This document shows, in pieces, positions 4,931-14,035 of a DNA stretch of 38,841 nt. The DNA is from a virus (lineage: Duplodnaviria; Heunggongvirae; Uroviricota; Caudoviricetes). Location: IMG/VR virus record IMGVR_UViG_2541047816_000002; one strand, given 5' to 3'. The translations under genes and the position numbers were made by a program. The notes beneath the pieces are model-generated. The model was not told the origin of the DNA, did no database searches, and worked only from the letters and a program-made list of their open reading frames with translations. Within the stretch, counting starts at the first letter, position 1; each line of letters begins with the position of its first letter.

Positions 4931-5099
4931 GATGGCAGCCTCCGCGATGAATTTGATTAACTCACCACCGAGGTTTTCCACGACCATAAGGGTGGTGAGA
5001 CGTACAGGGGTGGAAATACCGGTCATCACGGAACCCGGCCAGCCTTGCGGCTGCCCTGCACGCCCCACCATAATGCGAATGTGGCTGTGCTTAACGCAT

Positions 5100-5122
5100 A
5101 AAAAAACCGCCTGAGCGCGGTT
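5100..5122 (-). terminator. Rho-independent terminator for leftward transcription
   Basis: Minus-strand hairpin AACCGC-loop-GCGGTT followed by a T7 run (an A run on the plus strand). Confidence 0.6.
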
Positions 5123-5799
5123 ATGCGCCGTGAATGATTTCGGGTTTCCACGCCCGGCACCCGTTTTATGAGGTGCAGGTGCACTATAATTCCACCCGTT
5201 CTGGTTTTCAATAGCTACATTCAACATTTTCTCTCACCTTTTCAGCGGAGTGAACTTTGTGATGCAGTGCCTGGTGCCTCCAGGTGACGTTAACCAGTTA
5301 ACAATTAACGCCGGATACAGAGAATCCACCCATAACACTGTTTTTGGTTTTAACTGTTCCGCGTGCGCTGAGCCGCATTCACCGCATCACAAAATTCACT
5401 TTAAAAAGGGCGGCAGAGCAGTCACGGAGTAAAACTGATACCGCCAAACGTCACCAGAAAATTGATAACAGAGGGCGTTGCAGCGGGGTTGTCACTTAAG
5501 CGTATGGTCAACCTGACAACCCGGTGTCCTCAACGGGGGAAGGAATAACCCCGCCATACTTACCGCCGCGCCATTTCGCGGATTGCCACAACCGGAAGCG
5601 CACGGTCGACGAAAATTTAACGACAGGCTATCTATGAACCAGCTACCTCGCCGTGCGCTTTCGCGTTATGGTCTGACTTTTCAGGGAAATATCCTTTCAG
5701 TAAACTGTCAGTGCCGGATTCTTATCCGTGTCCGGCGCACGACCACACGCTGTCACGAGAGGTCTCCATTCTCAACCAGTAACCTCAATGGAGGATAAA

Positions 5800-9720: not shown

Positions 9721-10491
9721 ATGGAAACCGTATCTGACGCACTGAAAGCACTGAAAAAAGCCTCTTCACATGTGGTGGCAGCTCGCCTTGGAATCAGTCG
9801 TGAAGAGGCTGTCAACGAGCTGTGGGAACTCAAAAGAAAAGGCGTCGTTGATAAAACTGGTCACACCTGGTTTCTGGCTGGCGAAGGTGAATCCCGGGTA
9901 ACCGAAGAGCGGCCAGTAAAATCTGAAGCACAGGATATGCTGACCGGGGAGGTCGAACAAAAAGTTACCGCAGACATGATGATTGAGTTTATCGGTCAGG
10001 ATGGGGCTAAAACGTGTGAGGAACTGGCGGGTAAGTTCGGTGTCAGTACTCGCAAGGTTGCTTCCACGCTGGCGGTGGTAACCGCAACGGGGCGGCTGGC
10101 ACGCGTTAATCAGAACGGTAAATTTCGTTACTGCATGCCGGGCGATAATTTACCAGCAGAGCCGAAAGCCGCGCTGGTAACGGAAAGTGATGGTAAGGCC
10201 TTTCCTCAGCCAGCAGGTGCTGCGTTACCAGTCCGGGAAGCCGCAACACAGGAAGAAATTAAAACAGAAACTGTGGCGGACATTGTGCAGCCGTTGCCAT
10301 CGTTTACCGAAACGCAAGCAGATGAGCTGATTTTTCCGTCCCTTCGCAGGGCAAACCTGGCGCTGCGCAGGGCGAAAAGTGATGTTCAGAAGTGGGAGCG
10401 AGTCTGCGCCGCGCTGCGGGAGCTGAACAAGCACCGGGATATTGTTCGACAGATTACTGATTCTTCCCGCCGTGTTGTATCGGAAAAGTGA
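9721..10491 (+). CDS. Hypothetical protein with two winged-helix-like segments
   Basis: 256 aa; GGAGG RBS; two HTH-like stretches (ARLGISREEAVNELWELKRKG; AGKFGVSTRKVASTLAVV). Confidence 0.55.
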   Translation: METVSDALKALKKASSHVVAARLGISREEAVNELWELKRKGVVDKTGHTWFLAGEGESRVTEERPVKSEAQDMLTGEVEQKVTADMMIEFIGQDGAKTCEELAGKFGVSTRKVASTLAVVTATGRLARVNQNGKFRYCMPGDNLPAEPKAALVTESDGKAFPQPAGAALPVREAATQEEIKTETVADIVQPLPSFTETQADELIFPSLRRANLALRRAKSDVQKWERVCAALRELNKHRDIVRQITDSSRRVVSEK

Positions 10492-10506
10492 TTGCCGGAG
10501 GCGCTT

Positions 10507-10932
10507 ATGGCAAAAGTATTTACACAAGAAGAGCGGGAAAAAATTAAAGGGCAGGTTGTTGAACTTGTACGTCTGAGCGGTCGCGAGACGTTGCGGCAAC
10601 TGGAAGCCAAGACAGGTGCGACAAGATATCTGATGAGTGTTCTCGCCAGAGAGCTGGTTGCCAGTGGCGATGTATACAACTCTGGTTACGGGTTATTCCC
10701 GTCTGAACAGGCGCGTAAGGACTGGCAAAATGCTCGCAAAAAACTCTCAAGGGCAAAGGTGAAGAAACCTGCAGTGGTTGATCCGGACCTTATCTGGTCG
10801 TTACCAGACGGCGAAATACGCCGCTACGACAGGCGCCTGAATATAATCTGTCGCGAGTGCCGGAAGAGCGAAGCTATGCAGCGTGTACTGGCATTTTATC
10901 AAGGAAATGTTAGGTATTTTAGACGTTACTAG
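10507..10932 (+). CDS. Hypothetical protein (141 aa)
   Basis: ATG at 10507 with GGAG RBS; track start at 10492 is TTG. Confidence 0.5.
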   Translation: MAKVFTQEEREKIKGQVVELVRLSGRETLRQLEAKTGATRYLMSVLARELVASGDVYNSGYGLFPSEQARKDWQNARKKLSRAKVKKPAVVDPDLIWSLPDGEIRRYDRRLNIICRECRKSEAMQRVLAFYQGNVRYFRRY

Positions 10933-11085
10933 ATTAAAGAGCATTAGTTCAGATGTGAATTGACATTTTCATGGCGCAGGGTAGAGCCAGCGTGGTTGTC
11001 CGCTTTGCGTCAAAACCAGATATTACCAGATTTAGACATATATTCCCGATAGCCCTGCTCTGATGCTACACTCTGTGCTATTTTC

Positions 11086-11772
11086 ATGACCCCAATAAAA
11101 ATATTTATGACTATTGCTGATTTCAAACGGCCTAAATTGGAGCTCCCAAACGGGGCAAACAAACTACTACTGCACTCTTGCTGTGCTCCATGTTCCGGTG
11201 AAGTGATGGAGGCGCTTCAGGCCTCGGGAATCGACTACACCATCTTTTTCTACAACCCGAACATTCATCCTCAGAAAGAGTATTTAATTCGTAAGGATGA
11301 AAATATTCGCTTTGCTGAACAACACGGCGTGCCGTTTATCGATGCTGATTACGACACCGACAACTGGTTTGAACGTGCCAAAGGAATGGAATGGGAGCCT
11401 GAGAGGGGGATCCGTTGTACCATGTGTTTTGACATGCGTTTTGAGCGGACAGCGTTGTACGCTGCTGAAAATGGTTTCAGTGTGATCAGCAGTTCACTGG
11501 GCATTTCACGCTGGAAAAATATGCAGCAGGTTAACGAGTGTGGGCGGCGAGCTGTTGCGCATTATCCGGGTATGGTGTACTGGGATTATAACTGGCGCAA
11601 GCAGGGCGGCTCGTCCCGTATGATTGAAATCAGCAAGCGCGAAAAATTCTATCAGCAGGAATATTGTGGCTGTGTGTATTCTCTGCGCGATACCAATCTA
11701 CACCGCAAATCTCAGGGACGCCCTCTTATCAAAATTGGCCAACTCCACTACGGAAAAGAAGAGAAGGAGTGA
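11086..11772 (+). CDS. DUF208 / QueH-like protein (epoxyqueuosine reductase family)
   Basis: 228 aa with ...[11 protein letters not shown]... Cys cluster characteristic of QueH/DUF208, plus further conserved Cys (CTMCF, CGC). Confidence 0.6.
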
Positions 11773-12009
11773 TTTTATGGATCACCTTTCTGATTGATTT
11801 CATATTGGCGAGGTGACGTGAGTTAAGTAGAATGGCTGCGGGTGCTTGAGGCTATCTGTCTCAGGCATGAACACTGAAAGGCAGATAGAGAAAAGCCCCA
11901 GTTAACATTTCGCGTCCTGCAAGACGCTTAACATTAATCTGAGGCCCAATCTATGTCTCACAAATGTAGGTTAGCCTCTTACGTGCCGAAAGGCAAGGGG
12001 AAGCAGGCT

Positions 12010-12165
12010 ATGAAGCAGCAAAAGGCGATGTTAATCGCCCTGATCGTCATCTGTTTAACCGTCATAGTGACGGCACTGGTAACGAGGAAAGACCTCTGCG
12101 AGGTACGAATCCGAACCGGCCAGACGGAGGTCGCTGTCTTCACAGCTTACGAACCTGAGGAGTAA
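12010..12165 (+). CDS. hok: Hok/Gef-family type I toxin (small membrane peptide)
   Basis: MKQQKAMLIALIVICLTVIVTALVTRKDLCEVRIRTGQTEVAVFTAYEPEE matches recalled HokD/RelF; intrinsic terminator follows. Confidence 0.85.
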   Translation: MKQQKAMLIALIVICLTVIVTALVTRKDLCEVRIRTGQTEVAVFTAYEPEE

Positions 12166-12235
12166 GAGACCCGGCGAGGGAGAAATCCCTCGCCACCTCT
12201 GATGTGGCAGGTATCCTCAACGCACCCGCACTTAA

Positions 12236-12260
12236 CCCGCTTCGGCGGGTTTTTGTTTTT
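12236..12260 (+). terminator. Rho-independent terminator after hok
   Basis: cccgc-ttcg-gcggg hairpin followed by TTTTTGTTTTT. Confidence 0.7.
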
Positions 12261-12381
12261 ATTTTCAACGCATTTGAAGTTCTGGACGGTGCCGGAATAG
12301 AATCAAAAATACTTAAGTAGCGCGCAGGGATAAGAGGGATGGTCCCTTAAAGGGGAGAGCTAATTATCCGGAAGGATTCTG

Positions 12382-12633
12382 ATGATGAACATCGAAGAAC
12401 TGCGTAAAATTTTTTGTGAAGATGGCCTCTATGCTGTGTGCGTTGAAAATGGAAATATTGTTAGTCATTACCGCATTGTGTGTTTGCAAAAAAATGGGGC
12501 TGCGTTAATTAATTTTGTGGATGCCCGAGTGACGGACGGATTTATCTTGCGCGACGGTGAGTTTGTCACTTCATTACAGGTATTGAAAGAGATCGGAATA
12601 AAAGCTGGCTTTTCTGCTTTTTCAGAAGAATAA
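12382..12633 (+). CDS. Rem-like small prophage protein
   Basis: 83 aa MMNIEELRKIFCEDGLYAV...; resembles recalled Qin-prophage Rem; GGAAGG RBS. Confidence 0.55.
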   Translation: MMNIEELRKIFCEDGLYAVCVENGNIVSHYRIVCLQKNGAALINFVDARVTDGFILRDGEFVTSLQVLKEIGIKAGFSAFSEE

Positions 12634-12699
12634 ACTCATCTACAATCTTGCGCGGGGCTGAACTCCCGCTGAGTAACACCGTGCCACCGGAGAAAACCG

Positions 12700-12978
12700 A
12701 TGGCACGCAACGCAAAATATTACAAACATGATAATTCGACCGTTCTTGCCCACACGCACGAGCGGTATTCTCACGCATTTAAGTCAGACTGGTACCAGCA
12801 TCCCCCATGCACTGAAGAACAGGCCGAATGGCTAATTCATAACTACCGCAGACGCGGATACGAGATTAAGAAAGCCCTCAGCCTCGATTATCGTCACTGG
12901 ATAATCTCCGTCAGGCTTCCTTACTCCGAACGCCCACCGCGTCTGTCCCGCACATTCCAGCAACGCATCTGGAGGTAA
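12700..12978 (+). CDS. Hypothetical protein (92 aa)
   Basis: GGAG RBS; ORF ends 2 nt before next gene. Confidence 0.5.
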   Translation: MARNAKYYKHDNSTVLAHTHERYSHAFKSDWYQHPPCTEEQAEWLIHNYRRRGYEIKKALSLDYRHWIISVRLPYSERPPRLSRTFQQRIWR

Positions 12979-12979
12979 C

Positions 12980-14035
12980 GTGCGGGTATTACTTCGACCT
13001 GTTCTGGTACCGGAACTCGGGCTGGTGATCGTTAAGCCGGGCAGTGAATCCATGCCGGTATTCCACAATACCCGGGTACTGGTGGAGCCGGAACCGAAAA
13101 CCATGCGTAATCTGCCGTCCGGGGTCGTTCCTGCCGTTCGCCAGCCGCTGGCGGAGGATAAATCATTACTGCCATTTTTCAGCGACGAACGAGTGATTCG
13201 TGCTGCTGGTGGCGCTGGCGCATTGTCTGACTGGTTACTGCGCCATGTTAAATCCTGCCAGTGGCCACACGGCGATTATCACCACAGTGAAACCGTCATT
13301 CACCGTTATGGTACCGGCGCAATGGTGTTGTGCTGGCACTGCGACAACCAGCTGCGCGACCAGACCTCCGAATCACTCGGGCAACTTGCTCACCAAAACC
13401 TGTTTGCATGGATGATTGACGTCATACGCCATGCAATGAATGGCTCGCAGGAACGGGAATTATCGCTGGCTGAATTATCCTGGTGGGCGGTCCGCAATCA
13501 GGTGGCGGACGCGCTACCGGAAGCGGTATTACGTCGTTCGCTGGGGTTGCGTGCGGAAAAAATCCGCTCAATGTACCGTGAAAGCGACATCGTACCGGGA
13601 GAGCAGACCGCCACCAGCATACTGAAGCAGCGCACAAAAAATCTTGCGCCGCTGCCTCACGCCCACCAGCAAAACCCGCCACAGGAAAAGACGGTGGTCA
13701 GCATTGCCGTTGATCCGGAGTCACCGGCTCAGTATCTCCAGCGCCAGAAATCACAACGGGAAGAGATGCCTGTATACACGCGTTGGGTAAAAACGCAGAA
13801 ATGCATGACGTGTGGCAATCAGGCAGATGATCCGCATCACATCATTGGTCATGGACTGGGAGGGATGGGAACAAAGGCTGATGATTTGTTTGTTATTCCG
13901 CTGTGCCGTAAATGCCATAGCGAACTACACGCCGGGGTAGAAGATTTTGAAGAAAAACACGGCAGCCAGCTGTTGTTGCTGATTCGTTTTTTAATGCACG
14001 CGAGAAATTCGGGTGTTTTGAAGTGGAAAGCATAA
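12980..14035 (+). CDS. DUF968-like prophage protein with C-terminal Cys/His (HNH-like) motif
   Basis: GTG start with GGAGG RBS; C-terminal ...CMTCGNQADDPHHIIGHG...IPLCRKCHSELH... Confidence 0.6.
   Translation: MRVLLRPVLVPELGLVIVKPGSESMPVFHNTRVLVEPEPKTMRNLPSGVVPAVRQPLAEDKSLLPFFSDERVIRAAGGAGALSDWLLRHVKSCQWPHGDYHHSETVIHRYGTGAMVLCWHCDNQLRDQTSESLGQLAHQNLFAWMIDVIRHAMNGSQERELSLAELSWWAVRNQVADALPEAVLRRSLGLRAEKIRSMYRESDIVPGEQTATSILKQRTKNLAPLPHAHQQNPPQEKTVVSIAVDPESPAQYLQRQKSQREEMPVYTRWVKTQKCMTCGNQADDPHHIIGHGLGGMGTKADDLFVIPLCRKCHSELHAGVEDFEEKHGSQLLLLIRFLMHARNSGVLKWKA

Follow-up and report, generated by a model that had tools for sequence, protein, structure and literature searches.

The window, i.e. the whole stretch of 38,841 nucleotides analysed here, is a lambdoid prophage of E. 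coli that looks complete and has ompW beside its insertion site; it is 99.9% identical over 25 kb to a prophage of E. coli AR_0017. Its gene order starts with integrase, excisionase, exonuclease, dicB, Rha, repressor/Cro-like genes and YdaT, continues with replication genes, a DnaC-like ATPase, DUF1627, DUF977, QueH, hokD, DUF968, RusA and the Q antiterminator, and ends with a methyltransferase, three tRNA genes and the lysis, head and tail genes. The queH gene, on the strand of early-right transcription, lies between the replication genes and the Q antiterminator, which is the accessory (nin-like) location assigned to it by a sequence-only reading of this DNA. The same reading had noticed a neighbouring hok locus, and the Rfam family sok (RF01794) was indeed found at 11840-12015 with 120.5 bits, HokD being encoded just 3' of queH, at 12010-12165. 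HokD is annotated in near-identical prophages and a generic sigma-70 scan flagged the hok promoter region at 11805-11833. The rem gene, at 12382-12633, is missing from the AR_0017 prophage, which probably explains the uncovered 2% of the query. The features at the locus are collected in Table 1.

Table 1. Features at and around queH, in window coordinates.
Feature	Position	Strand	Remarks
Conserved upstream block CTGATGCTACACT	11060..11072	+	Extended -10-like; candidate promoter; left cassette edge
In-frame upstream extension, 7 codons	11086..11106	+	Probably untranslated leader
queH CDS	11107..11772	+	221 aa plus stop; identical to RefSeq WP_000150294.1
sok/mok/hokD type I toxin-antitoxin locus	11840..12165	+	Context; outside the queH cassette

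Several RNA genes were noticed elsewhere in the prophage. C4 antisense RNA, isrK and DicF sRNA genes are clustered on the minus strand at 4988-5459, in the immunity/dicB region. The three-tRNA cluster (16906-17155) has the anticodons CAT, TCG (Arg) and TCT (Arg) and resembles ileZ-argN-argO of Stx-type lambdoid phages. Its first member was called Met (CAT) by ARAGORN, while PGAP annotates the identical gene as tRNA-Ile, in which case it would be of the lysidine-modified CAU type. A link between these tRNAs and queuosine was rejected, the cluster consisting of one CAU (Met/Ile) and two Arg tRNAs with no GUN tRNA. Two tandem copies of the STnc100 sRNA (17232-17422 and 17700-17909; 136 and 161 bits) lie just 3' of the cluster.

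The open frame first described at this locus, 11086-11772 on the plus strand with 228 aa and a cysteine cluster at residues 27-37, is present exactly as given. The frame is correct; its start was placed 21 nt too far upstream of the conserved one. ATG 11107 is invariant across the aligned prophage alleles, phage HannyBb and the IncF plasmid copies. In contrast, ATG 11086 is changed to ATT in the GPEC657 prophage allele, where an in-frame TAA precedes the next ATG, and to ATT again in the IncF plasmid copies. Because the upstream ATG is unconserved and the downstream one invariant, the seven codons between them are probably untranslated. PGAP also starts the gene at 11107, giving 221 aa, and the N-termini of homologues fit this position; no Shine-Dalgarno sequence was found before it. 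Judged from these comparisons, the true queH coding sequence most likely begins at ATG 11107. Residues are given below in the 221-aa numbering unless stated otherwise, and adding 7 converts them to the earlier 228-aa numbering.

The protein had been assigned to the DUF208/QueH family of epoxyqueuosine reductases, with a Pfam search proposed as a check. Pfam PF02677 (QueH) was matched over nearly the whole profile, scoring 221.5 bits where the curated cutoff is 23.5 (E = 1.1e-65), residues 27-201 of the 228-aa frame aligning to profile positions 1-174 of 175; a match of this significance and extent is not due to chance. QueH was the sole Pfam family matched, and no NCBIfam model matches the protein. 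A phmmer search retrieved the crystallised Thermotoga maritima QueH (E = 8e-22, residues 27-203), and a HMMER scan of 1.84 billion representative proteins recovered 4775 representatives of the QueH family at E <= 1e-3. Several of these family representatives (P0195, P0199, P0205 and P0208) are long fusions, 719-1398 aa in size, whose QueH domain lies close to the C-terminus. That the window protein might instead be QueG was rejected, QueH being the only Pfam family matched and the host queG being a separate gene.

To assess residue invariance, the window protein and other family members, 39 full-length and mutually diverse sequences in all, were aligned; the members are 35-84% identical to the query. 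Seven cysteines are invariant, C25, C26, C29, C104, C107, C187 and C189, and are putative metal ligands; the conservation of cysteines expected by the earlier reading thus extends to all seven. The other invariant residues are N52, E58, Y59, R62, E99, R103, R111, K137, Q184, G188 and S192, so that the window protein keeps 18 of the 18 columns that are invariant in this alignment. Its cysteines align with the ligand positions of T. maritima QueH. The CCAPC form is the norm among the 39 sampled members, and the crystallised T. maritima protein, with CCAPD, is the exception. An AlphaFold2 model built from the same alignment had a mean pLDDT of 95.8 and a pTM of 0.91. The best five Foldseek matches in the PDB were all T. 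maritima QueH, with target-normalised TM scores of 0.90-0.92 and rmsd of 1.2-2.0 A (0.92 and 1.2 A for the best one, 7lc5), and the next ones, TtuA, LarE and TilS, were distant relatives with target-normalised TM below 0.6.

The limits of the transferred unit could be read from alleles with differing flanks. Homology among them starts at CTCTGATGCTACAC (11058-11071) and stops a few bases past the queH stop codon. The left edge coincides with the block CTGATGCTACACT, which comprises a TG at 11064-11065 and the hexamer TACACT at 11067-11072, 34 nt 5' of the start codon, and which is the same in the copies from prophages, phage HannyBb and IncF plasmids, although their flanks differ in other respects. 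At the same position, a chromosomal relative encoding a protein about 90% identical has TGCTAAAAT and the Photorhabdus queH has GCTAAAAT. This conservation suggests that the block is the native promoter of queH, carried along with the gene. The generic two-hexamer sigma-70 scan flagged no promoter for queH, and no terminator was found between queH and the hok locus. With regard to the moron criterion of an own promoter and an own terminator, what was found is a conserved -10-like block that moves with the gene, a scan that left it unflagged and no terminator before hok. From the alignments, queH is a compact self-contained cassette of about 720 bp, made of the conserved -10-like element and the ORF.

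Other regulatory elements were looked for in the same region. A structured leader or riboswitch 5' of queH was rejected, the leader folding no better than shuffled sequence (z = 0.32), and Rfam gave no family match for the leader even at E <= 1. No convincing match to an IscR or Fur site was seen by eye in the upstream block.

The slot directly 3' of queH (11773-12980) is a hot spot of variable cargo, occupied here by sok/hokD and rem. In O157:H7 strain Z563 it holds a Dcm methyltransferase and an NgoMIV-family restriction enzyme (L002, 20872-22882), in strain E118 a hypothetical protein and a KwaB-like (Kiwa) protein (L007, 4896-6535) and in GPEC657 a DUF1971 gene (L006, 5290-5628). Where hok itself is replaced, in the two aligned alleles of Z563 and E118, its promoter and the region of the 5' part of its mRNA are kept. 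The defence-type cargo of Z563 and E118 in the adjoining slot, together with the recruitment of QueC-like proteins of the Que family to defence systems (PMC13639016), raises the idea that QueH has been recruited to another substrate, such as 7-deazaguanine in phage DNA or a small-molecule epoxide, or to defence or counter-defence. We regard such a recruitment as very improbable. The active site is unchanged, identity to chromosomal, non-phage QueH amounts to 79-86%, the queH cassette moves alone, and PADLOC found no family for QueH, nor any for DUF977, Rem, the 92-aa ORF or DUF968. The DUF1627 neighbour gave two weak PADLOC matches (CARF3--CARF, E = 8.3e-4; Csa3, E = 1.6e-3). The possible connection with 7-deazaguanine chemistry raised by the sequence-only reading was not borne out either: DpdA/TGT, QueA and preQ0-synthesis genes are absent from the prophage, and none of the partners tgt/dpdA, queC/D/E/F or queA is annotated in the 99.9% identical prophage that spans the window. 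The survey of neighbouring prophages that it had suggested gave no other annotated queuosine or 7-deazaguanine gene in four related prophages and phage HannyBb. A role in DNA modification was rejected on the absence of these partner genes, and a defence role on the lack of a PADLOC match.

Close relatives of the gene are found in bacterial chromosomes. The window protein is 79-86% identical to QueH of Erwinia, Providencia, Proteus, Photorhabdus, Gibbsiella, Rahnella and others, and about 90% identical to copies in Citrobacter koseri, Klebsiella, Enterobacter and Escherichia albertii. In Providencia, queH lies among tmcA, purC, dapE and bamC, and in Photorhabdus, as in the approximately 90% identical relative, it is located in non-phage chromosomal DNA. 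Since close relatives sit in such DNA, the prophage gene is concluded to be a captured copy of an ordinary gammaproteobacterial chromosomal queH. The cassette is now in circulation on lambdoid prophages and IncF plasmids in the Enterobacteriaceae.

Among 5426 complete E. coli genomes, 995 (about 18%) carry queH, including O157:H7 and O25b:H4-ST131 strains. In 576 genomes, a single place covers at least 80% of window positions 10400-12700, a segment comprising the end of DUF1627 followed by DUF977, queH, hokD and rem. Outside prophages, tblastn found a QueH homologue on 302 plasmids, Klebsiella accounting for 99 of them and Escherichia for 67. The three plasmid loci inspected (L014, L015 and L016), from Klebsiella pneumoniae and Salmonella enterica, are all of the IncF type and carry queH as solo cargo next to repA, copC, TonB-like and fec genes, which are unrelated to phages or queuosine. 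In the phage collection, HannyBb holds the only close copy, the other 24 tblastn matches being mostly unannotated metagenomic fragments or very large, possibly bacterial records.

Could queH be a neutral hitchhiker, or a decaying gene, kept by selected neighbours such as hok, the restriction-modification genes or the Kiwa-like gene? It has no known phenotype, and damaged copies exist: a frameshifted variant (P0055), identical up to about residue 180, is present on a few contigs, and one genome (H46) holds only 65% of the gene. However, among seven prophage and phage alleles dN/dS was 0.02-0.05 at dS of 0.1-0.44, all invariant residues are kept, at least 80% of the gene is present in 985 of the 995 carrier genomes, and the downstream cargo varies while queH remains. 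These values indicate that queH is under strong purifying selection during phage residence, by which the reading as a neutral or decaying passenger appears largely refuted; we give it hardly any credence. The GPEC657 allele (L006, 4009-4677) has the non-ligand Cys145 changed to Ser. This substitution and the P0055 frameshift are rare signs of decay amid strong constraint.

E. coli does not synthesise the corrin ring, or B12, de novo, and it has the pathway that supplies the substrate, tgt and queA, which produce epoxyqueuosine (oQ)-tRNA; the universal presence of queG also implies this. QueH reportedly needs no cobalamin (Zallot and co-workers in 2017 and Li and co-workers in 2021 are said to have found so), and it is said, in the 2021 work of Li et al., to hold one [4Fe-4S] cluster and an adjacent iron. 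The duf208 genes are also reported to complement an E. coli queG mutant. The idea that E. coli normally uses QueG for this step, which would make a phage-borne queH an accessory gene, agrees with the finding of queG in all of the 5426 genomes. It is intact (1140 nt) elsewhere in the chromosome of O157:H7 strain Z563, whose queH is 100% identical to that of the window. As queG is universal, all carriers of queH nominally possess two non-homologous enzymes for the same step. Z563 also keeps btuB and a cobalamin riboswitch (L017, 41996-44095), so B12 uptake and QueG-dependent queuosine synthesis remain possible in this strain.

The QueG step depends on cobalamin, the enzyme using it together with two [4Fe-4S] clusters (PMC4646009), and QueG is counted among the cobamide-dependent enzymes of E. 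coli (PMC11841063). Deletion of queG left the growth of an E. coli metE-deletion strain with cobamides unchanged (PMC11841063), and for this reason the fitness value of converting oQ to queuosine (Q) may be small.

Taken together, these results make it probable, in our judgement, that the gene is mobile cargo and encodes a functional epoxyqueuosine reductase that does without cobalamin. That the window protein can catalyse the conversion of oQ-tRNA to Q-tRNA is suggested by its 79-86% identity to chromosomal QueH. In a lysogen, QueH would carry out the final step of queuosine synthesis, from oQ to Q, at position 34 of host tRNA-Asp, tRNA-Asn, tRNA-His and tRNA-Tyr and would duplicate the step of the cobalamin-dependent QueG. 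The benefit would be that, under corrinoid scarcity, these tRNAs are completed to Q and not left as oQ. We infer that the gene is expressed in the lysogen from its own promoter and that its independence from B12 is the selective advantage. Thanks to queH, lysogens would then probably finish queuosine without B12, and a benefit during B12 shortage is likely because E. coli does not make this cofactor de novo.

The early-right strand leaves room for another timing, since queH could for this reason be expressed mainly upon induction. QueH might then serve the lytic cycle, early-right transcription topping up Q for the NAU/NAC codons (Asn, Asp, His, Tyr) of the phage. Consistent with such a role, queH shares the strand of the replication genes and of the Q antiterminator, which lie on either side of it, no terminator flanks it, and the isolated phage HannyBb has retained it. 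We nevertheless consider this role unlikely. QueG is already present in the host, the life of a tRNA is long compared with a lytic cycle, and none of the prophage tRNAs (Ile/Met-CAU and two Arg) is a Q substrate. Moreover, the same cassette with its upstream block occurs on IncF plasmids and in chromosomes, which have no lytic programme, and these copies favour a benefit at the level of the host over a role in phage translation.

The preferred reading, a B12-independent QueH that completes queuosine in the lysogen, can be widened. We put forward, as a tentative idea only, that QueH, borne by lambdoid prophages in E. coli and by IncF plasmids of Klebsiella, Salmonella and E. coli, is a widely circulating fitness cassette of mobile elements of the Enterobacteriaceae that uncouples the completion of queuosine from the supply of B12. 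If this were true, the oQ/Q status of tRNA, and hence the decoding of NAU/NAC codons, would be altered where corrinoids are limiting, for instance in the inflamed or competitive gut. Such reprogramming of host tRNA modification by a temperate phage or plasmid, through a cofactor-bypass enzyme, would be a rare case.

The identity of the protein itself is already known, RefSeq/PGAP and UniRef naming this exact protein 'epoxyqueuosine reductase QueH', and knowledge of the QueH family is unchanged; the finding is only modestly surprising. In phage resources the situation is different. PHROGs places the window protein in phrog_3217, labelled 'unknown function', and phage HannyBb (PP925841) annotates the full queH ORF as hypothetical. 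The phrog_3217 profile (188 positions) begins at residue 41 of the 228-aa frame and lacks the CCAPC motif, from which it follows that phage gene calls apparently often begin at an internal Met. This PHROG is QueH minus its N-terminal active-site motif, removed by late start calls. Literature searches for prophage- or plasmid-borne QueH in E. coli gave nothing relevant. Both the systematic carriage of queH by temperate phages and IncF plasmids and the coexistence of QueH and QueG in about 18% of E. coli appear undescribed in the searchable literature. Should the enzyme work in lysogens, about one fifth of E. coli strains would complete queuosine without B12, by a horizontally acquired prophage or plasmid route, and strain differences in oQ versus Q would track the content of mobile elements.

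The crystallised QueH of T. maritima (PDB 7LC5, 7LC7 and 9DEU) shares with the window protein the Pfam family, the fold and the CCxP, RCxxC and YCGC motifs. However, it is only about 30% identical to it and has an Asp (Asp13) at the CCAP-D position, where the window protein (C29) and all 39 sampled members have a Cys. QueH of the gammaproteobacterial type also has about 18 N-terminal and about 25 C-terminal residues more than the T. maritima protein. Much closer are the chromosomal QueH proteins of Providencia, Proteus, Photorhabdus, Erwinia, Citrobacter koseri and Klebsiella, which are 79-90% identical to the window protein and belong to the same length class (214-222 aa), the closest of them having a similar -10-like element upstream. 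These chromosomal genes lie in ordinary neighbourhoods, whereas the window copy is carried by a lambdoid prophage whose host species possesses QueG.

E. coli QueG (YjeS) has the same annotated reaction (EC 1.17.99.6), on the same tRNAs and in the same cell, and is non-homologous to QueH. A comparable pair is said to exist in Acinetobacter baylyi ADP1, for which Zallot et al. reportedly described in 2017 both QueG and QueH, both of them chromosomal; a protein with 79% identity to the window QueH is encoded in a record labelled Acinetobacter. ADP1 and E. coli carriers are thus alike in having two non-orthologous reductases, but in E. coli the second one arrives on a prophage or plasmid and in about 18% of strains. 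Phage clusters for 7-deazaguanine (DpdA with FolE/QueD/QueE/QueC) are likewise phage-borne genes of the queuosine pathway. They modify phage DNA without Q-specific late enzymes, whereas the prophage in the window carries a late enzyme only. In their analysis of viruses, Hutinet et al. (2019) found no QueA, QueG or QueH homologues (PMC6884629), a statement on Q-specific late enzymes to which the temperate coliphages described here supply exceptions.
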